From: Dictyostelium discoideum
Taxonomy: Eukaryota
Direction of reading: 5' to 3'
Length of the DNA: 64,000 bases
Assembly (NCBI GenBank): GCA_000004695.1
Contig: CM000155.2
Span: 1,600,001-1,664,000, forward strand
Position 1 is the first letter of the stretch, and each line of letters begins with the position of its first letter. The notes below the pieces were generated by a model. It searched no databases and was not told the DNA's origin. It saw only the letters and a list, made by a program, of their open reading frames with translations. Below are positions 5,576 to 26,002 of this stretch, piece by piece. A program made the position numbers and the translations under genes.

Positions 5576-5636
<61 letters not shown>

Positions 5637-6037
5637 AATTTTTATTTTAAATTTTTTTTAATTTTTATTTTTTTTAACACACTTTTCATTTTCTTGTAAA
5701 TGAATTTATTTATTTTCACACCAACCAAGATTTAATATTACTTTTTATTTTTTTTTTTTTAATTTTTTTTAAAATCGTATTAGTTGATTTTAAAATCTAA
5801 ATGAAAAAGATTAATTATTATGTTTTATTATATACTTATAAATTATATAAAACATATTAATTGATTTTTTCTTTTAAAATCAATTAATATGTTTTAAAAT
5901 CAACCGATACAATTTTAAAAAAAAATGATTTATATTTACAATAAAAAATAATATATTATATTATTCTTTTATTCATTTTTTTTTTATTTTTAATTATTTA
6001 AAAAATCCATCTTTTTTTTTTTTTTTTGATAGAGTTT

Positions 6038-7319: not shown

Positions 7320-8383
7320 TAAAATATCCTTTTAAATTTAAAAATAAATTAATTTATTATTCATAAAAATAAAAAAATAATAAAAAAAATAAAAAAATAA
7401 AAAATAAAATACAAACATGGTAATTTTTATCAAAATTTCCAAAATTTTATTATCTTGGATACTTCTAAATTTTCTTTAATTGACATCTTAATAATTTTTT
7501 TTTTTTTTTTTTTAAAACTTAAAAAATTTTTAATTTATTTAAATTTATTTATTTTTTTTTTTTATATTTGTAATTTTTAATTTATTATTTTTATTAATAT
7601 ATTTTTCGGAATATCTTTTTTTTTTTTTTTTTTTTTTCTAAACGATCTGGGGGAGTATTCCGGAATCGAGATTTATAGTACAAATTTATTTTGTATTTTT
7701 TTTTTTCAAAATTTATGGGTAATATTCCACACGAACAAATCTTTGAGTTTTTACTGGAGCCACTGGATGAACCATCATACATATTCTTAAATCATTATAT
7801 TTTTCATTTTTAATACAAGACATTTTAATATTTTGATTTATATTTTTATTATTTTTCAATGAGAAATTATTTAAATTTTCTATATATATATATATAATAA
7901 AAAACATGATTTTAGTTAGTAAATATAATATTTTCTTTTTTTTTTTTTATTTAATTCTTTGTTTTTTTTTATTTTTTATTAATTTATTTTTTTTATTTTT
8001 TTTTTTTTTATTAAAAATATATACATACCAAATAACATTTTTTTTATTAATTATAAATATATTTTAAATAATAATTTAGTTTGAAATTAAATGAATAAAA
8101 AAAAAAAAAAAAAGTGTTTAAATAATTTTTTTTAATTTTATTATCAATATTTAAATCTTAAAATTTATATAATCAAATTTAGTAATAGTATTTTTTTAAA
8201 ATTTTTATTTATTTCATCATATATTATCATAAAAAAAAGTATTAATTTTATTAAATTGTTTCACTGAAGGTATGACACAAAAAAATATTGACCAACACAA
8301 AATAAAACAATTGGTAGAAATTTGTAAAATTTAAAAATAAAAAAAATAAAACAAAATAAAAAATAAATAATGATAAAATAAGG

Positions 8384-9067: not shown

Positions 9068-10039
9068 TTAATTTCTACTTCTTCTTTCTATTTGATCAAT
9101 AACATTATTTGATTTTGTAAATCTTTGACCTCTTAAAAATTGATCATCTTTGAATATACCCTTATAGATATGGGAGTAATTATTAAGTTGACCTATACCA
9201 TTGAATTTACCATCACGGAATTCACCTTGATAAATGTAATTTGGAGTTACAATTTTACCAGTACCATTAAAGTGTTGATATTTCTCTTTGTATGGATAAA
9301 AGAAACCAACAAAAGCACCAACTAACGTTGAGCCTAAATGACAAGCATGATCCAAAGGTGATCTTCTTGAAAAAAGGGGTAAAAATAAACCACAGAAATC
9401 GAAAAGTGCCAATGCTGCCAATACTTGAGAACCTTCGAAATCAAACATTGGTAAGAATATAATACTTACACGTGAATTTTCAAATAAAACAGAGGATGCA
9501 AAGAGTGAGAAAACACTACCACTTGCACCAATCGAGGGAACTACATAACTTCCCACCAACAATTTATAAGTTAAACTTGTCATTGAACCAAATAAACCAC
9601 CCAAGAAATAGAGTATTAAGAAATCACGAGTTCCTAAATGATCATAAGCCGTACTACCAAATGATGCCAATGCATACATATTAAAAAGTATATGAAGTCC
9701 TTCTGTATGTGTAAATGTTGAAAGAATTAAAGATGATGGATACTTATTAAGTGATGATGGTGAAAGGAAGAAATGTGGACCAAATCTTTCTAAAAATCCT
9801 TGAATCTTTAATAAACGCCATACTATAATATTTGCTGCAATTAATGAACCAATCACTAAATATTTCTCTGTAATTTTATATTTTAAAATTTTAAAATAGT
9901 ATGGTTTTTCTTCAATATCTTGTTTACCATTATCATTATCATTTGAATTATTACCAAAACCTAAAAATCCTAACCCAACTCCAACAAATGAAAATAACAT
10001 ATTTTTTTTATTTCTATTTAAAAAATTTAAAATTTTTTC

Positions 10040-10861: not shown

Positions 10862-12672
10862 TTAATGAGAAACTATAATTGGTTTTGAATTTGGATCAAA
10901 TTTAAAAGTTAATTTCTTCCAGAATAATAAAACTATACCCATATCGAAAACCCACATTGAAATTAATACAATGAAAAGTGGTAGACGTCTTATCATTGAT
11001 AAACCATAACCAGCCCAAAGCGGACCAAGAATTCTAGCAAGACTACCCATAATCATCATACAACCACTTAGGAAACCTTGAGATTCTTCTTCACCATAGA
11101 TTCTATTCAATAGTTTAGAATAAAGACTATAGACTGAAGTATTTTGAGTTGGAATACCAACAGTAGTGATTGCAACCGATAAAATGAATTTCCACATTGG
11201 TACACTATCAGTTGCCAAACCAAGTCCAAAGAAGAACATCATCAATATTAAACCAGCACCAATGAATAACATACCAAACATGATTGCATGTTTATCTTGT
11301 CCACCTTTACCTGTGAATATAACTGTAACAATAATGAAAACTATGATTTCCAATGACACCAAACTATACATAATACTATTTTGAATTGTACCAAAACCAT
11401 ACTGTTGTTGAGTGATTGGTGTAATTAAAGTTTCAAGTGAACCAAATACAAAATTTTGCACAAAATTAATTACAAAACATGTCAATAGTGATGCATTTAA
11501 TATCTTTTTTAAATTTTCTAAAAATGTTGGTTCTTTTTTCTTTTGATCAGCACCAAATAATCTTGATTGATGAATTGAACCACCATTTGATGAAGAGGTT
11601 TGATATTTTGAAAATTTTTTACTTGAAAAATGTTGAAATGATGATTGTGGTGTAATCATGGTAGTTGATAATGATTCACCACCATTTCCATTTAAACCTT
11701 TTGGATTAACCATTCTATATGTTAATGATCCTTCCTCTCCAAATGTTGGATATTTACTATATGTTGAATATTGTTGATTTATACTATGCTTATAGTCTCC
11801 ACCCAATGTAACTTCTGAATATTTATCTAATGCATGTGGATGGCTTGTACTTTTATGTAATAATGGTGCTTTTTCATTACTTTTAAATTTAGATGATGAA
11901 ATATGTTGTTGTTTTTCATTTATATCAATTTTAGATACTTGATCAATATTAGTTTGATTATTATCTTGATTATCAATTATTGGAGTTGGTTCTCTGAATC
12001 CAATGAATGATAATAAAATTAAGAATAAAAATAATGCTAATAACCAACCTGGTGTTCTTAATGGATCGAAAATGAAATGAACTTTACCAATCCAAAAATT
12101 GAAATTAACTTCACCAATACCAAGATTAAATGCTGGACCTGCAACTAAACCAAATGCATTGATACCATTGATTATACCCATAAATTTGGTTCTTTGCTCT
12201 TTGGTACTGACTGCTGCAATGTAACTATTGGTTAATGCCATATTACTACTACCGATACCTGCTATGAAACGACCTGCAATCACCATATATGGATCGATTG
12301 CCATTGCATAAACTATATTACCAATTACACCAACTATTAAACTTGCTATAAAACTTTCTTTCATTGTTCTTTTGTCTGCCCAAATTCCAACAATTGGTAA
12401 AAAACAAACTTGTGCTATTGAAAATACTGCTAATGCCCACCCCAATGAATTACTATTACCATTGATTGATTCTAAATATTTTAATAATGATGGCATTACA
12501 ATACCATATTCAACATTTGCCACAAATCCAATTATCATAACTGTTGTTAAACTTAACATGTGGACTCGATTTTCTGTTTTTTCATTTGATATTTCCACTT
12601 TTTCATCTTTTACTGATACTTTTTCTTCTTTATTTATTATTAAAATTGAATCATTACTATTATTATTTTCTA

Positions 12673-12676
<4 letters not shown>
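10862..12676 (-). CDS. major facilitator superfamily (MFS) transporter, single exon, 604 aa, with large central hydrophilic loop
   Basis: 12 predicted hydrophobic segments. MFS-like motif GIWADKRTMK between TM2 and TM3 (G-x-x-x-D-R/K-x-G-R-R/K type). ATG at 12674-12676 follows an A/T-rich leader. Confidence 0.8.
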
Positions 12677-12706
<30 letters not shown>

Positions 12707-12751
12707 CCAAATACCTTTTATTCAATGGTAATAATAATAAAAAAAGATGGT

Positions 12752-12788
<37 letters not shown>

Positions 12789-13118
12789 TTAAATAAAATT
12801 CAAAAAAAAAAAAAAAAAAAGGGGGGGTTATAAAAGGGAATCAACTTTGCTTGGGTTTTTTTTTTTTTTAACAAATTTTTAATTTTTTTTTAATTTTTAA
12901 TTTTTTTTTAATTTTTTTTTAATTTTTAAATTTTTTTTAAAACCCAAAAATATTTTGTTGTAAAGGAACAAATTTTCTTTTTTTTTTTTTTTTTTTTTTT
13001 TTTTTGGAAAAATTTTTTTAATGGGGGGTTATCATTCCCTAAAAAAACTTTTTCCCAAACCAAAAAAACCAAAAAAAATTTAAATTTAAAAATTAAAATT
13101 AAAAAAAATGGGGTTTTT

Positions 13119-13150
<32 letters not shown>

Positions 13151-13344
13151 TTATTATTAAAGGGGATTGGGTTTTTAAAAAAATAGAGATGAAAAAAAAA
13201 AATTTGGATATTTCGGAAAAAAAAAAAAAAAATTAAGAGTTTTTTTTTATTTTTTATTTACAACTTTAAAAAGATATTTTTATTATCTTTTTTTTTTTTT
13301 TTTTTTTTTCTTTATCTTTTTCTTTTTATATATATTTTTTTTTT

Positions 13345-13596
13345 TTATTTAATTCCAGTTTGTTTTTTAAAAACTCTAACTATTGAATTGAAGAAAATAG
13401 TTCCGAGGATAATTGAACCACTAACCAAAATCGAAATAAACCCTTGATATCCATTACAATATATTCTTTTTGATAAAAGAAGACATAGTGGAATAATAAA
13501 TGTTAATTGTATTGTAAAATCTAAATTGATAAACAAAGATAAAATTGAAAGACAAAAAAGAAACACTATTGAATTATTTTCAAAAGTTTCATTCAT
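13345..13596 (-). CDS. possible small membrane protein (83 aa, 2-3 TM), unverified
   Basis: ATG in AAAATGA context. Hydrophobic segments FLFCLSILSLFINL and ISILVSGSIILGTIFF. No homology recognised. The (TTTTG)13 tract lies immediately upstream. Confidence 0.3.
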   Translation of the reverse strand: MNETFENNSIVFLFCLSILSLFINLDFTIQLTFIIPLCLLLSKRIYCNGYQGFISILVSGSIILGTIFFNSIVRVFKKQTGIK

Positions 13597-13644
13597 TTTA
13601 TCTACTCTGGGAACATATCCTATTTTCTTTTGTTTAGTTTTTTT

Positions 13645-13700
13645 TTGTTTTGTTTTGTTTTGTTTTGTTTTGTTTTGTTTTGTTTTGTTTTGTTTTGTTT
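13645..13700. repeat. (TTTTG)n pentanucleotide microsatellite, ~12 units
   Basis: ttttgttttgttttg… seen directly. Confidence 0.95.
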
Positions 13701-14012
13701 GGAGAAAAATAAAATAGGAAAATAATAGAAAAAAAAAAAAAATTTTAAAAAAAAAAAAAAATTTTTAAAAAAAATTAAAATTAATTCATCTGTAAAGGTT
13801 TTGTGATGGAAAACTCAAATAGTTAAAAAAATTTATAAAAATTAAAAAAAATAATATAAAAATCTAAAAAAAAAAACAATTAAATCTTTTTTTAGTTTTT
13901 TAAGTTTTTTTAAAATCCAAAATTAAATGTTTTCTGTATCCCAGTTACATATTAAGTTTTTATAATAAAATGTAAACCCAACAAATTCAAATCAATTCAA
14001 AATAGTAAGCAA

Positions 14013-14051
<39 letters not shown>

Positions 14052-14535
14052 AAAGTTTTTTTTTTAATATCTGGTATACAAGTAATTGTAATTAGGTATC
14101 ATCTATATTTTACATTTTTGATTCCAATTTTTATTTTATTTTTTTATTTAACATTTTCAACAAAGTATATTATTTCATATTGTAATTGATAGAAAGATGG
14201 AAAAAAAAAGTGCAAATGCAAAAGTTCTTTGAGAATTTGATGCTCGTAGGTACGGTGTTTTTTACTTTTTTATTTTCTGCGAGCGACTTTGCAAATTAAC
14301 ATAAATATAAACACCACAATCATTTCATTATTATTTTGTAGTTATAGAGATATTAGAATTTTATAATTTCTAACTATGCTTTTTTTTTTCTCCATATAAA
14401 ATTTTTTTTTGGCATTTTGTTGTTTTGGATTTGTGAGGTGGTTATTTTTAAATTTCATTTTTTTTATTTTTTTTTTATTTTTATTTTTTTTTTTTTTATT
14501 TTTATCCACAACAATTCAAACAAAAAAAAAAAAAA

Positions 14536-16003
14536 ATGATTGGTAGTGATAAATTATTTTTTAAAGTTTGGAGAAATATTTATTTAAAAAAAATAATATT
14601 TCATCATTTAAAATTATATAATTATATAAATAATTATTTAAATGATTTTTATAGTATAAATTCAATTTTTGAATTTAGAGAAAATTTTCAACCAAAAGGA
14701 TATTTAAATTCATTAGTTTTAAATATTAGTGATATATTAAATGGTAATGGAATTTATGATGATCATTCTGAATTATTTGATGGAATTCTATTTGATCAAT
14801 TTTTACCAAAAGATGTCACAACTCTAACTATAAAATACAGTAGGGATGCAATTTCATTAGGATTAGATGAACCAAGAATACAACTTGAATTACCACCATT
14901 ACCAGATCAAATCACCACATTAAATATATTCACCATGCAGATGGAATACTATCAAAATATTGATAATACTAAACCATTAGATATAAGTGAATGGCCATTA
15001 AAACCAAACTATTTAATGGGAAAAGTGAACTTAAGGAAATTAAATTTTAAAAAGATGCCAAATATAGATTATAACAAAATCAACCTACCATTATATATTT
15101 CAAATAGTTTTAATAAAATCACTACAATTTCAATTGGACAAATACCAATGGGAATTATTGATTTAAGATTACCAGATAATTTTAACGGTAATCTTGAAAG
15201 TGGTTGTATTCCATCAACAGTTTTAAAATTAAAATTTGGTAGAGCCTATGATAAACCTTTAAATAAATCAACAGATTTACCAATTGGTTTAATTGAATTA
15301 ACTTATCATGCTAATCATTCAATACCATTGAATTGTTTACCTGAAACTTTAGAAATATTAAAACTCGGTGAAAATTATAATTCACCAATCATAATTGGAT
15401 CATTACCAAAATCTTTAAAATCTTTAAAATTTGGTAAATCATTTAATCAACCATTGAAACAAATTGGTTGTTTTCCATTGAATGAAAATTTAAATACTTT
15501 GATATTAGGTAAAAATTGGGATAATATAGTATCAAATGGTGTTTTACCTTCATCAACATTAATTCATTTAAATTTAGGAAAAGCAAGTGATTTTAGATTG
15601 AAACAAACTATTTATTCATCAAGTATTAATATGTTTAGTAAATTCTATTCAGATGAATCATTAATTCAATGTAATAATTTGAAAACATTAATTATTAATT
15701 ATTTCGATAAACAAATCTTACCAAATTCATTACCAAATTCAATTGTAACAATTAAATTTAAAAATTTCAATAATGGTAATAAACCAATCCAACCATTTTC
15801 TTTACCATCTGAATTGGAATACATTGATTTTGGTAATAAATTCAATCAAAAGATTCAACCAAATTCTTTTTCTCATTTAAAAAATTTAAAAACAATTAAA
15901 TTTGGTAAATCATTTAATCAATCATTAGAAAATTGTATTATTCCTTCAACTGTTAATTTAATAACTTTTAAAAATTCAAAATTTAATAAATCACCACCAC
16001 CAA

Positions 16004-16042
<39 letters not shown>

Positions 16043-16629
16043 CTTTAAAATTAAAAATAAGAATGTATAATTCAAATGATTTAAGTAATGATTTTAAAAA
16101 TTGTTTAAATTCAATAGATTGTAAATTCTTATCAAATGAAGATGAATCAAATTTAAATTCAACTACATTCCCAAATTCATTAACAAGTTTAAAAATTAGA
16201 GATGAGTTTAGAAAACCAACAAGTTATAATGGATTTTTAAAAAATAAAATTAATTTAACAAATTTAGATATAAATGAACCAATTGAAAAATTAGAATTAC
16301 CTTTATTAAATAATAATGATAATAAAACAACAACAACAACGACAACAACACAAAATAATAATAATATAGTTAATAATATTAAAATTTTAACATTATATAG
16401 AGGTATACATCCATTATTAATATTTCCATCAATTGAAATTTTAATTATAAAAACTTCATATATTATTATAGATGAAAAACAATTCCCAAATTTAAAAGAA
16501 ATTCATTCAAAAAATCATAAATTTATAAATTCAATTTTTAATAATCCAAAATTATTTGAAATTTTAAAATATCCAATTAAAAATAAAAATCAAAAGCTTG
16601 ATGAAAGAGCTTCAACAATTTTATTTTAA
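14536..16629 (+). CDS. FNIP repeat-containing protein (Dictyostelium-type), single exon, 697 aa
   Basis: Multiple ~22-aa FNIP repeats with the F-N-Q/I-P-L signature (KFGKSFNQPLKQIGCFP, FGNKFNQKIQPNSF, KFGRAYDKPLNKS…). Poly-Thr linkers. True ATG at 14536. Confidence 0.85.
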
Positions 16630-16688
16630 ATATAATTTATTTATCAGAGTTGTTATTATTATTATTATTATTATTTTTACATTTTATT

Positions 16689-17348
16689 TTAAAATTTACC
16701 AGATTGAAAATCATAAAATGCTTGTTGAATTTCTCTTTGTGTATTCATAACGAATGGACCATGTTGTACAACAGGTTCACGTAATGGTTTTGCAGATAAG
16801 AATAAAAATCTAACACCATTTTCACCAGCGGTGACATCAATTTTATTTGGAATTGATTGTTGTTGATCATCTTTTGAGAGGGTATTGTTATCTTTGTTTT
16901 CTAATAAACCAATATGTTGATCACCGATTTTAACTTGATTACCTTGTGGACCGAAAAAACCTTCACCTTCGAAAACATAAACAAAAGAACTATGATCAAA
17001 ATCTGGAATTTCCTCTGAAAATTTAGCATTTGCTTTTAATTTAACATCTAAAAAGATTGGTTTAACATGTAAATCTCTAACTGGACCTTCGATACCATCA
17101 TAAACACCTGCGATGATTCTAACTTTTTTATCATCAGTATTAACCTCTGGTATATCTGCTGCTGGAATATCTTTATACCATGGTTCTGACATCTTTTCTG
17201 CTGCTGCTAAATTTAACCAAAATTGAAATCCAAACATCATACCATCACGTTGTTGTGGAATTTCTGAATGAATAATACTAAAATTATAAATTAAAATTAT
17301 ATTTATTAATATATATAAAATTTTTTTTTTTATTGTTTTTTAATTTCT

Positions 17349-17382
<34 letters not shown>

Positions 17383-17934
17383 ACACATACCCTTTACCTG
17401 CATTCATAATTTGAACCATGCCTGGTAATAATAAACCTCTATTTTTTCTATTATCCTCATGTAACATTGCACCTTCAATCATGTAGGTGAGAGTTTGTTG
17501 ACCACGATGTGGGTGATCTGGGAAACCTAAATAATAAATAATAAATTATTAAATTAGTTTGGGAAAACTCTGGATACTATATGCTATACTATGCTATATA
17601 TTATATTTACCTGCGATATAATCATCTGGGTTATCAGATTTGAAGGCATCCAACATTAAAAATGGATCAACTTCACTACTTTTTATAGAACCTATTGGAA
17701 AGAAAATAATTATTAATAAAATTTAAATTTCCTAAAGGAAATAATAAAAAAAAAAATAACCTAGGTGGGTTGCAATTTTTTTTTTTTTTTTTATTATTAT
17801 TAATATTAGGTGATAAAGTTAATATACTAAAATGAATTCATACCTCCAATAACACGAGTTAATGAAACTCCATCACCATCTTTTGTAGCAATACCTTTAG
17901 CTACCTTTAGTACTTTTCTTGATACACTTGACAT
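16689..17934 (-). CDS. pirin (cupin-fold) family protein, 4 exons, ~298 aa
   Basis: Exon 1 17934..17844 (MSSVSRKVLKVAKGIATKDGDGVSLTRVIGG, donor GTATGA). Exon 2 ~17691..17611 (SIKSSEVDPFLMLDAFKSDNPDDYIAG). Exon 3 ~17526..17391 (GFPDHPHRGQQTLTYMIEGAMLHEDNRKNRGLLLPGMVQIMNAGKG; pirin metal-binding H-x-H motif). Exon 4 17277..16689 (IIHSEIPQQRDG… C-terminal pirin domain). Total 897 nt; phases consistent. Confidence 0.85.
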
Positions 17935-18385
17935 TTTTACTATTTTATTATTTACTTTTTAAAAAATAAATTTTTTATGTTTGGGAATTTTTTTATTTTT
18001 TGAAAAAAAATTGTTTTTTATTTTTAATTAATTTTCGGCGATGTTCGGGGTGATATTTTTAGAGTGGATTGCTTTAAAAAAAAAAATAATAATAACCTTC
18101 AATTTTTTTTGCGTTTTATTTTTTTTTTCACAACTGGCGCTTTTTTTTTAATTAAATTAAAAAAATAATATGAAAAATTTAAAAATAAATAAAATTTTTT
18201 TTTTTACTTTATGATTCGATTAGAATAAAAACAATTTGAAATGGAGACAAAAAATATTAATCATTTAATATAGTGAAAATTTTATTTAGTTACCTAATAT
18301 TATTAGAAAAAGAAACCCAAATTACACACATCCATGTGTTTCTGATACTTTATATTACCAATATTTTAATCACGATAATAACATT

Positions 18386-19732
18386 AGACTTTTAAAAGGA
18401 TCAATACGTACGGATGCCCGCGAACGTCAATAGTGAACAGGTGGTACAATGGCCAAAGGATCAACAGGATTTTCTAATTAAAAATAAGGTACCGTTGGAA
18501 AGGATATGGAATTTGGACGAAACAGCAATAAAACTTGATGAAACTGCAGTTAAGGTAAAAGTATTAAACTTACAACCATTTTTTTAAGTAATATATTACA
18601 ATATATCATTCATATTAATTAATAAAATTCTTTGAATATTTTGATTATAGTATGTTGTAAACAAAAGTTTAGGTAAACCATTGACAAAACCACTCAACTA
18701 TTCCCAACATGTCACCATGATTGGGTGTATATCGGCGAGTGGTCGCCGTTTACCTCATTACTCAATTATAAAGGCACCAAAGACATCAATTGGCAATATA
18801 ACAATTCATACCCAAGGGAATATAATATTTAATGAGTCAGGATGGGTTGACACCAAACAAAAAGTAGATTTCATTAAGTATTTTGGTGATTCAATAAACA
18901 GAGGTCTAACCAAACCTTATCCATTAACTGTTTTATACTTGGACAATCATTCATCAAACTTACAAGAAGAAGTTGCAGATGCCTTGAATGAATATAATAT
19001 TCATTGTTATACGTTTCCAGCTAACTCAACTCACTTATTGCAACCATTGGATTTATTGGTTTTCGGTATTTTCAAAAGAAAGTTGAACCAGACCATTAAT
19101 AATTTAAAAAGGGTTAAATCCAAAAAGGATATACCCAAAACAAGCTAATTATCATTTGAGGAATTATTGGACGTAATAGAAACATCATGGGATGCTACTG
19201 CTTCACCAATTACTATTAAGAATGCTTTTGAAATGATTAAAATAGATTGGAAATCGATAAAAGCATCTTATTTGGATGAATTGGAAAATAATGACGATAA
19301 ATCTTTAGCATGTGTTTCCAATACTTTAGTTATAAATGAAAAACCCTCTTCAACCCAAATAGCAGATGCAAGAAAGATTGGGTTCCAAATTAACAGTTTG
19401 GGTGTAGGGTAGGTAAGAAAAAATAAAATCTATAAATTACTATTATTATATACTAATTTTTTAATTTTAAAATCACAGAAATACAATAAAAATAGATGAA
19501 GCACCAAAAAAAAGAGGTAGACCATCAAAGGTTACTATTAATTCAACTGTAAATGTTTTAAATGTCAATATCCAAAACAATTTTAATATACCAATTACCG
19601 ACTTTTCATCACCTGTGTTAAAACTTAACAAAAATGGCCAACCAAGAAAAAAATATACTAAAAAATTAAAGGCCATTCATGATAGTACAATAAATCAACA
19701 GAATTCAAACAAAATCTCTGAAATTGATTAAT
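18386..19732 (+). mobile_element. 5'-truncated pogo/Tigger-type DDE_1 transposase-derived remnant (with introns, in-frame TAA, C-terminal AT-hook)
   Basis: Frame opens at ~18386 with no upstream HTH/CENP-B domain. First catalytic motif IWNLDETAIKLDE (~18470). GT-AG intron ~18537-18651. Middle part …LYLDNHSSNLQEEV…NIHCYTFPANSTHLLQPLDLLVFGIFKRKL (DDE_1 second and third acidic motifs). In-frame TAA at 19146-19148 (ORFs 18681..19148 and 19167..19412 share a frame). C-terminal …SWDATASPITIKNAFEMI…, then after a putative intron KKRGRPSK (AT-hook). No terminal inverted repeats found. Confidence 0.65.
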
Positions 19733-20080
19733 CTCCAATATTAATAAATAATAATAAATAAATAAATTATTTTTTTTCTCATATAAAATTTTAATTAAAA
19801 AAAATGTCGGTTGCAAAAAAAAAAAAAACTCGAAAAAAAATTGAAGGTAATAACCAATTTAATATTTAATCAATAACAATAAAATTAGAATAATTTAAAA
19901 AAATAAAATAAATTAAATTAAAATATCAATAACAATAAGATTAAATTATAAAAAAAAAAAGTGATATTTGAAAATATCTATAAAGGTGTCAATTTTGAAA
20001 AGTGATTAGAGATTTCAATTTAATCATCATTTGTTTTTTTTGGTTATTACTTAGATTAAAAAATAATTTGAATGATTATA

Positions 20081-20103
20081 AATATAATAATTATTATTAT
20101 TAC

Positions 20104-20160
<57 letters not shown>
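20081..20160. repeat. (ATT)n microsatellite
   Basis: Perfect run, intergenic. Confidence 0.95.
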
Positions 20161-20161
<1 letters not shown>

Positions 20162-20627
20162 TAATTTTTAGTTATAATTAATGATCCAAAAAAACAGAAT
20201 CATTTCATTCATTTTTTTATATTTGATACAATAATTATACTTTTTTTAATTTTTTTTTTTTTTCATTTTTTTTTAATAACATGTAAATGGTATAATTTTA
20301 GTAAGATTATTTAAAAATACAAATGAAAATCAAAGACCACCATTACCAGAAAGAAAAGGGTGCTCCATTATTACCAAGATATGAATATATATAATTCAAA
20401 GAATATGATTATAATGAAGATGATGAAATTATTTATGTTTTATATAAAATATTTTACTTTTCCATTTAGTAAATTTTAAATAGGACATTTACCAAATAAA
20501 ATTTATAGATTTAATTTATTTAATTTTCTCATGTACATAAATAATCATATTTTATTTAAAAAGTTATTTTTATTTATTTATTTTAATAATTTATTTAATT
20601 AATAATAATAACAATAATAATAATAAT

Positions 20628-22628
20628 TTAACCCCATTGACTGGTTAATTCAATTAATAAACAAAAACTATCAGAATAATGACTATATTTATCTTGTTTA
20701 TATAAAGTATCTAAAGAGATGAATTTTGGCCAACCCCAAGCACTATCGAATCCTTCATCAAACATTTTCTTAAAACTAAATTCAATTGAATCTTGGAATC
20801 TAAACCCAATTACACTTGCCAAAACTGATATTGCTAATGGTTTTGTTAACTTACTACCAAATGCCAAATAAACAGCCAATTGACCTTTTTCTCTTTCCTT
20901 TAATTGAACGAAAAACTCTCTATCCTTGAATGAGAATCTCTCTAAATTTGCTGGTAATTTTATATCCTTTTTAATTCTATATAAAAATTGATTAGTTGAT
21001 TGACCAAATTCTGATGAAAATGAATTTAATGGTATAATTTCATTTGTAACATTTGAATCAAATGGTTGAGCTTTTTAAAATAAAATTAAAAAATTAAAAA
21101 ATTTTAATAATAAAATGAATAAATAAAAAAAAAAAAAAAAAAACTACTTACTAATACCTAATAAAAATTCAATTGGATAGGGTCTTTTTCTATTATTACG
21201 TGGTCTTCTATAATGGTAACCTAAAAATGAGAAACTTTCACCTCTATTTGATTTTAAAATATGTCTAAGAAGATTTGAAATTTCTTTATCTGGTATAATT
21301 TTTAAATTATCTAAACGTTCAAATGCTTCGCCGATATTCATATTTTCCCAACGAATTAGTGGTAATACTTCATCCAATAAATTCTTATCGATTGTTGTAT
21401 CCCAATCTTCAATGATATCTAAGTCATCCTTATTTGTTGAATATTCATAATCATCGTTTGCTGAATCATCTTTATCATCATCATCGGTGAAATCATCATC
21501 CTCATCATCATCTTCATCATCATCGTCACCATCTTCGGAATCATTTTCAAAATCATCGCCAACACCACCACCACCATTACGATGTTCTTCATCATCAATA
21601 TCACTATAGGTTTCTTCTGTATCGCTATGACAATCGTTGTTATTGTAATGACCACCACCACCACCACCATTACCAATGTGCTGTCTGTGGTGATCTTTTA
21701 ATGATAGAGAATTTCTTCTTGAACTGCATCTACTACTACAACTTCCATCGGATCCACCATCACCATCATGCTTTTTCAAATGTGATGAACTACTTCTTTT
21801 ACCATGACTTTTACCACTTGCACCATTTGCAGATTGAAGCTGTTGTTGCTGTTGCTGTTGCTGTTGTTGAATGGAAGCTTGTGAATTCTCTCTACACCAA
21901 TCTATAACACAATCTAATATATCCAATTCTTCCATCCTTAGACCATCATTACGTAACATTTGAACGAGTGTTGTCAAACTGATACTATAGAAAGCATCAC
22001 AATGTAATGAAATACTTGCATATTGTAGGACGAAAGCTCTTAAATGGGGGTGAACACTCTCGACTGGTATAGCACTTTGATTTAAAGAATCCCAAAGAAA
22101 AAGAGCACTTTCAACATCTGGTTTCTCTAGATACATTTGTGCGATTTTACCCATTGTTGCCAATGATAATTCTTTACCTCTTTGAAGACCCAAAAGATCG
22201 CAATACTGATAGATTGAACTCACCATCCTATGATCATAGTCTAAATCTAAAATTCCAATACAAATATATTTCAAAACGGTAAAAAACACATCAGGATCAA
22301 CACCCTCCAAGGTAATCTCTTTAATTGATGATTCTTTCATTGATCCAGTGAACATTGCTTTAAAGTACTCGCTTCTTGCCACTAACATTATCTTACTTGC
22401 AAAGAATTTCCTATCACCAACTTTAAATATTACATCACTAAACTGCGATGGTTGATCAGAATCCCCTAATAATATACCAAATGTATTGGTTAAATCTCTA
22501 GCTAATTTTATAATATCTTCATCTGTTCCATTACTATTACTATTGTTATTATTATTAGTATTATTATTATCATCAACACTTGAATTTAATGGATTTGGTG
22601 ATTTTTGATTATTAATATTTGATATCAT
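20628..22628 (-). CDS. BTB/POZ-BACK protein with acidic low-complexity region and C-terminal MATH/TRAF-like domain (2 exons)
   Basis: ATG 22626-22628. BTB: FSDVIFKVGDRKFFASKIMLVARSEYFKAMFTGSMKES…ITLEGVDPDVFFTVLKYICIG. Poly-Q, then a G/D/E-rich acidic tract. Exon 1 ends …PIEFLL with donor GTATTAGTAAGT at ~21157. Intron 21071-21157 (87 nt). Exon 2 21070..20628: AQPFDSNVTNEII…FSFKDREFFVQLKEREKGQLAVYLAFGS…DSAWGWPKFISLDTL (MATH-like). Confidence 0.75.
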
Positions 22629-23969
22629 TTCTATAAATATAAAAATAATAAAAAAATATTAAAATTACATTAAAAAAAAAAAAAAAAAAAAAAAAAAAGT
22701 TGGACAAGTAATAATAAATTATTTATAAATTATAAATAAATAAAAAAAAAAAAAACAGTTAATATGTGGTTTTTTTTTTGTTTTGTTTTTAATTATTATT
22801 TTTATTTTTGTTTTGTTTGTTTTTTGTTTTTTGTTTTTTGTTTTTTTTTTAATTATTTATTTTTATTTTTTTTTTTATTTTATTTTTTTTTTTAATGTGG
22901 TGGGTTGTGTGTTGAAAAAAAAAAAAAAAAATAAATAAAAAATACTAACTTTGATTTATTGGTTTTTTTACACTAGGTTTATTGGTGCTATTAATGTTAC
23001 TACTATTATTGTTATTATTATTGTTGTTACTATTATTATTGGTGTTGTTGTTGTTGTTGTTGTTGTTGTTTTGATTATTATTTCCATTAAAAGATATTCT
23101 TACAACAGGCTCAATTTCCATTTTGAATTATTTGCAAATCCCACAAATAATTTAATAAATAAAAAAAATAAATAAATAATTTATTTTATATTATTCTAAT
23201 TAAATAAATTTTTTTATATTAAAAAAAAAAAAAAATAAAGAAAAAAAAAATAAGGAAAAAAAAAAAAAAAAATAATAAAGAAAATAAAAAATTATTTGTA
23301 ATGTTAATTTATATTAAATCAATAATTGAAAAATAAATATTTTTTATTTTTTTATTTTTTGGATAAATTAAAATAATTATGATAATATTAAATGCATATA
23401 AATAAATATATATATTTATAACTTTATAATAACAAGAATTATGATGACCCCACACAAAAAAAAAAAAAATTTAAAAAATCTGTTCATATAAAAAAAAAAA
23501 AAAAAAAAAAAAAAGAGAACAAATTGTTAGCACTGATTAGAGTGTGAGTGATTGAATGTATTTTTTAAAAAAAAAACTACTATTGTTTATGTTGGTTAAC
23601 ATTTTTGAGTATTGAAAAAATGTTGGAACCAATTATATTTATAGTTATAATTATAACTATCATTATTTAGTGTTTTGACATTTTTTTATTAATTTTTAAT
23701 TTTATCTTTTAATTTTATTTTTTGAAGGTGCCAAACTGTTTGGTATCCTTAAATTATTATTGTATTTAAAAAAACAATGAAACAATTTTGTGTGGGTGTA
23801 TTTAAAATTCAAAGAAACAATATTTTTTTAATTTTAAAATAAAAAAAATATAAAAAAAAAATATAAAAAAATAAAAAAATAAAAAATAAAAAATTAAAAG
23901 TATAATTAAAATAAAAAAAATAAAACAAACCTTTAAAACTTTTTATTTATTGTATATGAAATTATTTAA

Positions 23970-24004
<35 letters not shown>

Positions 24005-24702
24005 AAAAAAAAATATTGTTTTGGATTATATATATATATTAAATACCTAATGAATCAAAATAATCAATTTTTTTATTTTTATTTTTAATTTTAATTCTTT
24101 TTTTTTGTTGGGGTGTGATGAGGTTGGAATTTTATTTGTGTAATTTTTAACACAAAACTGTTTTTTTTTTTTAATTTTCCTAGTCACTTTTTTTTTTTTT
24201 TTTTTTTTTTCTTTTACATAACCCCGTCCATTAATGGTTTGTCAGTGAATATATTATTGAGAATGGAGGTATAATATGTAAATATTGTTTATTTTTTAAA
24301 TTTTATATTTCTTTTTTAAAATTATTATTATTATTTATGTTATTATTTTTAATATATTATTATTTATAAACAAATTGGTGGAGATAATTAATAATAGTTA
24401 TTGATAGTAGATCTATAAAAAAAAAATGTGTATGTACAAGTGATGTATTTCCTTTATTTTTTATTTTTTATTTTTTATTTTTATTTTTTGTTTTTTGTTT
24501 CCATTTTTTTACTTTTTTTAAAAATCTAAAAACAATTGCATGTCAAAATAATAAAAAAAAAAAAAAAAAATAAATAAAAAAAATAAAATATAATAAAATA
24601 AAAGTTCCTCTTTGTTTACATACCAAATTTGATTGAATTTTGATAATATATTTAATATATTAAATATATTAAATATTATTATATATTAAAATATAATAAT
24701 TG

Positions 24703-24738
<36 letters not shown>

Positions 24739-24753
24739 ATAACATAATTATAC

Positions 24754-24785
<32 letters not shown>

Positions 24786-25032
24786 TTGTATAATATTTAT
24801 ATTCAAAAAAAAAAAAAAAAAAAAAAAATTATATAATTGTATAATATTAATTCAAAAAATGTGTGGGTGAGGGGCAATAAGTGGGGGTTTTAGTTAACTG
24901 CTTACCAAAATGAATTCATTTCCAAAGTTGAAATTAGTGACCACCCTATGTAGTTTTTACATATATTATAATATAGATTTAATCAATTGAAATGGATTTT
25001 ATTTAACAGTTTAATTATTGCTAATTATTTTT

Positions 25033-25035
<3 letters not shown>

Positions 25036-25129
<94 letters not shown>
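25036..25129. repeat. (AAT)n microsatellite, ~30 units, intergenic
   Basis: Seen directly. Confidence 0.95.
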
Positions 25130-25547
25130 GTAATTTTTGAGATCAAAACATTTATGCTATATTAGTAAATTACTCTGATTTTTTATTTTTATTATTATAA
25201 GTAATTTACTTTGATCTTTTATATTTAAATTTCCCATTCATTTTTTTTTTAAATTTTCCATTTTTTTTTTTATTTTTTTTGTTTTTAAACAAAAAAATAG
25301 ATGGAAAAAAGAAAAAAAAAATGAAAAAAAAAAATGAAAAAATTTAATTTTTTTTTTTGAAAAAAAAAAAAAAAAAATTCAAAATTCAAAATCATTTCGA
25401 TATCAAAGTAATTTATTCAAATAAATAAATCAAACAAATTATCTGTCTGTACATATATATACATAAATAAATATATATACATTTTATCAAAAAAAAAAGT
25501 ACATCTTCTTTAGTTTTTATTTAATAAACACAATAAAAAAAAAAAAA

Positions 25548-25971
25548 ATGGGAAAATCAAAAAAGAAAGTTATACCAACTTCTAATAAAGAACCGAAGAA
25601 ATCAACATCATCACAACAACAACAACAACAGCAACAACAACAGTTAACACCACAACAAGCTCAACAATTGCAACAACAACAAATGCAACACCAACAACAA
25701 ATTCAATACGCACAACAACAATTGCAACAAGCACAACAAATACAACAAGCACAACATCTTCAAATGCAACAAACCTCTCAAAGATTAGCACAACAAATCC
25801 AACAAATTCAACAAAAGAAAATTTCAATTAATCTAGATAACCTTGATAAAAACTTTTTATCTTTAAATTTAGATGCATTAAAACATTCTCAAAATCAAGC
25901 AAATGGTATATTCAGTTCATCATCCTCGTCAAATAAAAATACTAAAAATAAGAATAAAAATAATAATAATA

Positions 25972-26002
<31 letters not shown>

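Follow-up and report, generated by a model that had tools for sequence, protein, structure and literature searches.

The pogo superfamily of cut-and-paste DNA transposons, a part of the IS630-Tc1-mariner group, comprises elements whose transposases differ in the spacing of the last two catalytic residues, with a reported range of DD29-56D (PMC7386202). Elements of the Fot and Fot-like branch are almost all DD35D (Gao et al. 2020, PMC7386202); a TAA instead of a TA target-site duplication accompanies 341 of 385 Fot elements and some Fot-like ones, and the repeats of the branch are 40-60 bp long, or about 100 bp in FotC, while Tigger and pogoR have TA duplications and usually short repeats (PMC7386202). 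Fot-like elements have been reported from one amoebozoan species, and the available part of Table S1 of the same study has Entamoeba alone among Amoebozoa and no Dictyostelium (PMC7386202). The DNA-transposon families described in Dictyostelium discoideum are Tdd, DDT and thug, with transposases that show no significant similarity to known transposases (reviewed in PMC5633606); Tdd elements encode a retroviral-type integrase (PMC2836005), and thug-S is a multicopy DNA transposon containing an intron (PMC4894637). Here, a transposase gene in a stretch of 64,000 nucleotides of D. discoideum AX4 chromosome 6 (contig CM000155.2, positions 1,600,001 to 1,664,000 of assembly GCA_000004695.1; 21.8% guanine plus cytosine, GC; hereafter the window) is analyzed in comparison with these systems. 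The gene annotated at this locus is DDB_G0292434, named in UniProt a DDE-1 domain-containing protein. The segment 18096-19847 of the window is very probably a dead and non-autonomous member of a low-copy family of cut-and-paste transposons within the pogo superfamily, most like the Fot and Fot-like elements.

The three-exon model of the gene in the window joins positions 18414-18554, 18651-19408 and 19479-19731 of the forward strand, and its spliced protein scores 68.2 bits against the Pfam family DDE_1 (PF03184; cut-off 22; E=8.4e-19), with the relatives P0001, P0004, P0006 and P0032 likewise above the cut-off. The motifs by which an earlier note, made from the letters of the window, had recognized the domain (IWNLDETAI, LDNHSS and FPANSTHLLQPLDLLVFGIFKRKL) are all present. 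The catalytic aspartate codons are 18516-18518, 18942-18944 and 19050-19052 (D35, D145 and D181 of the model). The intervals separating these aspartates comprise 109 and 35 residues, which is the DD35D spacing. The D-D-D triad is invariant in all five aligned family members; on the alignment of these residues, where the earlier note had let a transposase origin stand or fall, the triad is thus intact.

In relation to the full-length gene of the family, which has six exons, the window copy retains three on the forward strand. Exon 4 (18290-18554; tblastn with P0032 and DNA alignment) holds most of a Tc5-like second helix-turn-helix (HTH2), the linker and the first aspartate (GAC at 18516-18518), and the ATG at 18414, taken as the start in the earlier note and in one annotation, falls within it. 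Exon 5 (18651-19408; Pfam and triad coordinates) encodes the DDE_1 core with the second and third aspartates and contains a TAA at 19146-19148. Exon 6 (19479-19731) encodes a basic tail with KKRGRPSK (19507-19530) and NGQPRKKYTKKLK (19633-19671) and ends with the stop codon at 19729-19731. The intron at 18555-18650, within the catalytic domain, is 96 bp long with 14.6% GC and shares its position with the copies L010 and L001 described below; the one at 19409-19478 is 70 bp long with 14.3% GC and occupies the same position in other copies. Both are on the forward strand. The claim of two introns is therefore borne out by GT-AG borders, identical positions in other copies and low GC content (14-15% in both introns vs 26-39% in the exons, and 33-39% in the exons that flank 18555-18650). 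The claim of a C-terminal AT-hook stands in part: KKRGRPSK is present, but its Pfam AT_hook score of 11.4 bits is below the cut-off of 17.4, and the GRP core is not conserved, with RGRKTK or RGRNPK in diverged relatives. As compared across the family, the exon 6 tail certainly carries a conserved basic motif, which may serve as an AT-hook proper or as a nuclear localisation signal.

Further copies were located through annotated proteins and not by a whole-genome DNA search. The AX4 lineage has at least three defective copies, each at a locus of its own, namely that of the window and those designated L011 and L012, both on another chromosome than the window copy in the AX4-lineage assembly. L011 and L012 are 97-98% identical to the window copy (BLAST), with lesions that differ from copy to copy; between the window and L011, there are 5 substitutions over 763 bp of coding-frame sequence. 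L011 is an internally deleted element of 1273 bp flanked by TTA and TTA, and L012 comprises only the 5' kilobase of the element, lies near a chromosome end and corresponds to the partial AX4 gene DDB_G0294368. No intact transposase was found among the AX4-lineage copies located in this way. An intact form is present in the genome ACTFIY ('D. cf. discoideum'), where at least six annotated gene models of the family cluster at 90% identity or more: the element L010 is 2181 bp long, and its gene, with six exons and five introns encoding the 511-amino-acid protein P0032, spans 1925 of the 2181 bp. At a different locus of the same genome, the copy L001, which has an internal deletion of its own, is identical to L010 at 99.0% of DNA positions, implying recent transposition in ACTFIY.

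Comparison of these copies defines the element of the window as positions 18096-19847 (1752 bp), with a TAA at both flanks. The extent proposed earlier, 18386-19732, lies inside the element and is too narrow, as DNA homology to other copies covers approximately 18078-19851; this is the range shared with L001, which is flanked by unrelated genes. Terminal inverted repeats, which had been reported as undetectable, are present. The exact 15-mer CCTTCAATTTTTTTT has just two occurrences in the 64-kb window, one at 18096-18110 on the forward strand and one at 19833-19847 on the reverse strand, that is, at both tips of the element. The inner motif T6-SRCAACYGRC likewise has just two occurrences in the window, 27 bp inward of the left tip and 26 bp inward of the right one. 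The left repeat (18096-18212, forward strand; identified by self-BLAST, with motifs conserved in L001, L010, L011 and L012) consists of CCTTCAATTTTTTTT, a T-run and then CACAACTGGCGC; the right repeat (19744-19847, reverse strand) was identified by self-BLAST and by the shared tip and inner motif. In the self-BLAST of the window, 18074-18212 pairs with 19869-19744 at 71% identity over 139 bp including the flank, and the imperfect inverted arms within the element are about 105-115 bp long, compared with about 160 bp in L001 (self-BLAST). The tip sequence is kept at every recovered end (window, L001, L003, L004, L010 and L011, plus the left end of L012), the inner motif is conserved in all aligned copy ends, and the tips are exactly where homology ends between copies at different loci (the right tip in L001, L003, L004, L010 and L011).

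Where the earlier note had envisaged TA or some other duplication at the insertion site, a 3-bp one was found: TAA at 18093-18095 is identical to TAA at 19848-19850, both on the forward strand, the latter delimited by comparison of flanks among copies. The flanks of L001 are TTA on both sides, as are those of L011; L010 has TAA on the left and CAA on the right, L012 has TTA on the left and lacks the right end by truncation, and L003 and L004, for which there is no left end, both have TTA on the right. Thus, a perfect direct duplication of TWA accompanies three of the four complete copies, and T-W-A is found in 10 of the 11 recovered flanks. That the left and right triplets are direct and not inverted repeats fits a 3-bp duplication of a TWA target, for which this support is suggestive. 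A TA register of the duplication was rejected, since no single register yields TA/TA in all copies.

The affiliation of the element was examined by profile search, profile alignment and structural comparison. Among 1.8 billion representative proteins, the profile search yielded 10,051 relatives (E≤1e-3); outside the D. discoideum complex, the nearest come from the dictyostelid Synstelium polycarpum, from metagenomes (mostly unnamed proteins) and from animals, with the 'tigger transposable element-derived protein 1-like' of Pecten among the nearest named matches. The architecture of the relatives, HTH_psq/HTH_Tnp_Tc5 followed by DDE_1, is that of pogo. When full-length Dictyostelium proteins were aligned to pogo proteins with hhalign, the match extended over 336 columns, including both HTHs and the core (probability 100%, E=3e-42), and within it residues 24-127 aligned to the psq/Tc5 region. 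The AlphaFold model of P0004, built from an alignment of 5 sequences, is of low confidence (mean predicted local distance difference test score, pLDDT, 53), with residues 1-60 helical at pLDDT >80; it was used solely to confirm the fold class, and its best structural matches in the PDB are the Mos1, Metnase/SETMAR and Sleeping Beauty transposases. When the sequences of solved structures were searched with the profile of the family, no match was significant. On these sequence comparisons, the element of the window is assigned to the pogo superfamily of the IS630-Tc1-mariner group, and its family appears most to resemble the Fot/Fot-like branch by diagnostic features (DD35D and the TAA/TTA duplication), not by a tree. 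The earlier description of the gene as pogo/Tigger-like was accordingly right about a pogo-type DDE transposase; "Tigger-like" is looser than the evidence, as DD35D and TAA/TTA fit Fot and Fot-like elements.

The copy in the window is disabled by three lesions. A remnant of the original transposase start, ATGGAGACAAA, occupies 18241-18251 of the forward strand, with the original ATG at 18241-18243, and is followed at the junction 18251/18252 by a 424-bp internal deletion and then by the 3' remnant of intron 3 (18252-18289, forward strand, ending TTTAG), as seen in the alignment to L012 and L010. The deletion takes the rest of exon 1 together with exons 2 and 3, and with them the coding sequence of HTH1 and of the beginning of HTH2. 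Coding homology begins at 18290 with exon 4 (LPNIIRKRNPNYTHPCVSDTLYYQYFNHDNNIRLLKGSIRTDAR), one frame off the frame that opens at 18386, and the remainder of the Tc5-like HTH2 is readable in this different frame at 18290-18420. The second lesion, a 2-bp (AA) deletion at 18420/18421, accounts for the shift (the alignment reads GATGCCCG--CGAACG against GATGCCCGAACGAACG); in tblastn with the intact P0032, residues 84-127 are found in one frame and those from 129 onward in another. The third is a change of AAA to TAA at 19146-19148. This in-frame stop, pointed out in the earlier note, is real: other copies have lysine there, and the DNA, compared at this codon in one paralog, L011, reads AAA. The description of the gene as 5'-truncated and devoid of an HTH is correct insofar as all of HTH1 and the beginning of HTH2 are lost; the copy has kept its 5' end, including the left repeat and the original ATG, and "internally deleted" describes it better.

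The presence of the element was compared among related genomes in syntenic regions retrieved through pirin orthologues from ACTFIW and ACTFIR (both labelled D. discoideum) and from ACTFIY. In all three genomes, the interval between the pirin and BTB genes contains no trace of the element, and synteny extends from an FNIP-like gene through pirin to window position 18087-18092 and resumes to the right of the element. A site without the element in three related genomes indicates an insertion and not a conserved host gene; by the standard that the earlier note had itself set, the reading as a host gene is thereby rejected. By comparison, assembly GCA_054883475.1 is 99.94% identical to the window over 7 kb and contains the same element, annotated there as the gene ACTFIT_009340.

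The earlier note had left open whether the locus is a decayed DNA transposon copy or a once-domesticated transposase. The evidence supports the first of these, a decayed transposon copy that bears introns and a nonsense codon. Under the alternative, DDB_G0292434 would be a real host gene of the CENP-B, Jerky or TIGD type, decaying or functional in its truncated form, and it can point to protein-coding annotations both in AX4 and in the second assembly and to a reading frame that, apart from the three lesions, is well kept, with a low ratio of non-synonymous to synonymous substitution rates (dN/dS) relative to a distant copy. The annotations themselves offer it little: the 256-amino-acid hypothetical protein DDB_G0292434, identical at 100% to parts of the spliced translation of the window in a protein search, starts at 18538, after the first catalytic aspartate, and removes 19006-19243, including the third, as a 238-bp "intron" that runs through coding-like sequence, and the 345-amino-acid model ACTFIT_009340 leaves out the stretch GIFKRK…LLDVI. 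Both public models gain an open frame solely by starting downstream of the frameshift and by ad hoc splicing around the TAA. The low dN/dS value also has another origin. Measured against the intact L010, the window copy gives a dN/dS of 0.075 (dN 0.085; dS about 1.1 and hence saturated), which indicates that the transposon lineage was under strong purifying selection and for most of its existence, until recently, encoded a functional transposase; the open reading frame of the dead copy is well preserved because of this past selection, which preceded the insertion. Among the AX4-lineage copies, there are five non-synonymous changes (including the stop) to one synonymous change, where about 3.8:1 is expected under neutrality, and these substitutions look neutral. 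Genes domesticated from pogo elements have neither repeats nor duplications and keep their synteny from species to species. The window locus retains both inverted-repeat ends and the target-site duplication, has defective paralogs elsewhere in the same genome and is matched by element-free syntenic sites in three related genomes, so that a domesticated host gene is very improbable here.

Two other classes of element have to be weighed against a pogo-type transposon. A 3-bp TWA target duplication is a hallmark of PIF/Harbinger elements, and the flanks TAA/TAA, TTA/TTA and TTA/TTA are what such an element would leave. The transposase type and the single-gene content nevertheless exclude this class, which is given hardly any credence: Pfam gives DDE_1 and weakly DDE_3, with no match to DDE_Tnp_4/Plant_tran listed, structural comparison gives mariner and Sleeping Beauty transposases as the best matches, and the six-exon gene, which spans 1925 of the 2181 bp of the intact element, leaves no room for a second, Myb-like open reading frame. 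TAA duplications, moreover, are documented in Fot and Fot-like pogo elements (PMC7386202). It is less remote, though still unlikely, that the element is one of the catalogued DNA transposons of D. discoideum, thug-S/thug-T or DDT, that was not flagged at this locus. Like thug-S, which is multicopy and has an intron (PMC4894637), the element bears introns; however, known D. discoideum transposases are without similarity to known ones (PMC5633606), whereas the window protein clearly belongs to DDE_1, and the transposases of Tdd resemble integrases (PMC2836005). The small-RNA sequences tabulated in PMC4894637 (Table 2) are absent from every copy of the element, even with up to 3 mismatches allowed; the entry 'D3' of that table may be the small RNA that the same study placed in the thug-S intron. 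Furthermore, the AX4 lineage shows only three decayed copies, and annotation treats the gene as a hypothetical protein and not as a transposon.

Several observations weigh against the assignment to a Fot-like pogo transposon or temper parts of it. The score of the inverted repeat within the window is reached by about 2-3% of AT-rich control pairs and is thus modestly above background; because this statistic is weak, the case for terminal inverted repeats rests on the uniqueness of the tips and on their conservation across six loci. L010, one of the four complete copies, has the unmatched flanks TAA and CAA, and if T and A are taken as fixed at the ends, the middle base is the only informative one (4 of 4 concordant, p≈0.06). 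A single exact TAA empty site could not be shown in the AT-rich DNA of the related genomes, which is too diverged for this; ACTFIW and ACTFIR differ from the window by about 8-10% at the element-free site. The introns are predicted from GT-AG borders, base composition and frame conservation. Pfam finds no HTH in the intact Dictyostelium relatives, and the Fot-like placement relies on diagnostic features rather than on phylogeny.

The history of the locus as a pogo-type transposon copy is very probably as follows. In the lineage leading to AX4, the element entered a TAA target located upstream of pirin, about 160 bp from the start codon of that gene. By analogy with the workings of the family, the bipartite HTH of an intact transposase (psq-like plus Tc5/CENP-B-like) would bind the terminal inverted repeats, and the DDD site of the RNase-H fold would excise the element and join it into TWA with a 3-nt stagger, leaving the TAA or TTA duplication. 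The window copy retained both ends but lost its coding capacity through the 424-bp deletion, the 2-bp frameshift and the AAA-to-TAA change. Without this capacity, it would be movable only by an intact transposase supplied in trans.

Pirin is the left neighbor of the element, as had been claimed, and the neighbor on the other side is a BTB gene. The left end of the element is about 160 bp upstream of the start codon of the divergently oriented pirin gene (window 17934-18096), within what must be the pirin promoter region, and an effect on pirin expression might be possible. A long (TAT)n/(ATT)n microsatellite at 20085-20160, about 240 bp past the right tip of the element, yields spurious poly-Ile and poly-Tyr open reading frames. 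Between pirin and the BTB gene, ACTFIW and ACTFIR have a single-exon BB_PF (PF18063) gene of 263-286 amino acids, of which tblastn found no trace in the AX4 window and of which ACTFIY has short DNA remnants of the two ends only (regions compared: window 19851-20545, L006 6589-7449, L007 4688-5555 and L008 5099-5823). The presence or absence of this gene, at a site about 110 bp beyond the right end of the transposon, appears to be independent of the insertion. Across the gene-dense window positions 12000-26000, ACTFIW and ACTFIR (L006 and L007) are about 89-95% identical to AX4; this divergence is far above what strains of a single species would show and suggests that the complex includes cryptic species.

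The surroundings of the other copies are also of note, as the family tends toward transposon-rich neighborhoods. On a 5.29-Mb chromosome, L012 is located about 20-30 kb from one end, adjoining an Integrase_H2C2 gene, and near it there is a 21/22 match to the small RNA 'miRNA-like_D4', which has been reported to map close to telomeres (PMC4894637; positions of interest, 9352-9373 and 11439-12659 of L012). About 6 kb from the L001 copy, there is a gene (L001 2720-4166) for a 348-amino-acid protein with a DDE_3 domain, a Pfam family of Tc1/mariner type, which may represent a DDT-type element; L004 is situated amid reverse-transcriptase genes. ACTFIY also has a second DDE_1 family (P0006, P0042 and P0043), with about 35% protein identity to the first and three copies clustering at 90% identity or more. 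At its locus L005, repeats of about 98 bp (5581-5674 and 7397-7494; 81% identity) are built around TGGTTGCG and T-runs.

Full-text literature searches for the gene identifiers returned no mention. A pogo/Fot-like family seems to be undescribed in Dictyostelium, being set apart from thug and DDT on indirect evidence, that of published descriptions and small-RNA sequences. The fuller proposal, that the D. discoideum species complex harbors an undescribed, intron-rich (five introns) Fot-like pogo family still active in some genomes, is put forward tentatively from the sequence comparisons, as a possibility that falls short of being probable. If it is true, the ACTFIY transposase and the defective AX4 copies with intact ends could form a native cut-and-paste system for Dictyostelium. 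For genome annotation, DDB_G0292434 and the partial DDB_G0294368 are to be corrected to transposon relics and not host genes, and a clearly classifiable pogo/Fot-like family is added to the list of Dictyostelium mobile elements. The insertion also provides a dated presence/absence marker among genomes of the D. discoideum complex. The general understanding of how transposons function is unchanged by these findings.

Among known systems, the catalogued transposons of D. discoideum (DDT, Tdd-4/5 and thug) have the same host, low copy number and repeat-rich surroundings as the present family, from which Tdd-4/5 differ by their retroviral-type integrase. With the Tigger and pogo elements of animals and with the genes derived from them (CENP-B, Jerky and TIGD), the Dictyostelium family shares the DDE_1 core, the N.DET motif of the first aspartate, the QPLD motif of the third and probably DNA-binding domains of CENP-B/Tc5 type; unlike the domesticated genes, the window locus keeps its repeats and target-site duplication and is an insertion polymorphism. 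The Fot/Fot-like clade, with Fot1 of Fusarium and its relatives, shares with the Dictyostelium family a DDE_1 domain with DD35D spacing, the TAA/TTA duplication, long repeats (40 bp or less is usual; about 100 bp in FotC), a size of about 2 kb and probably the bipartite psq-like plus Tc5-like HTH, as indicated for the intact Dictyostelium protein by profile alignment. The Dictyostelium family differs from this clade in its dictyostelid host, its five introns, HTHs too diverged for Pfam, a long basic tail with the AT-hook-like KKRGRPSK, and repeats arranged around long T-runs.

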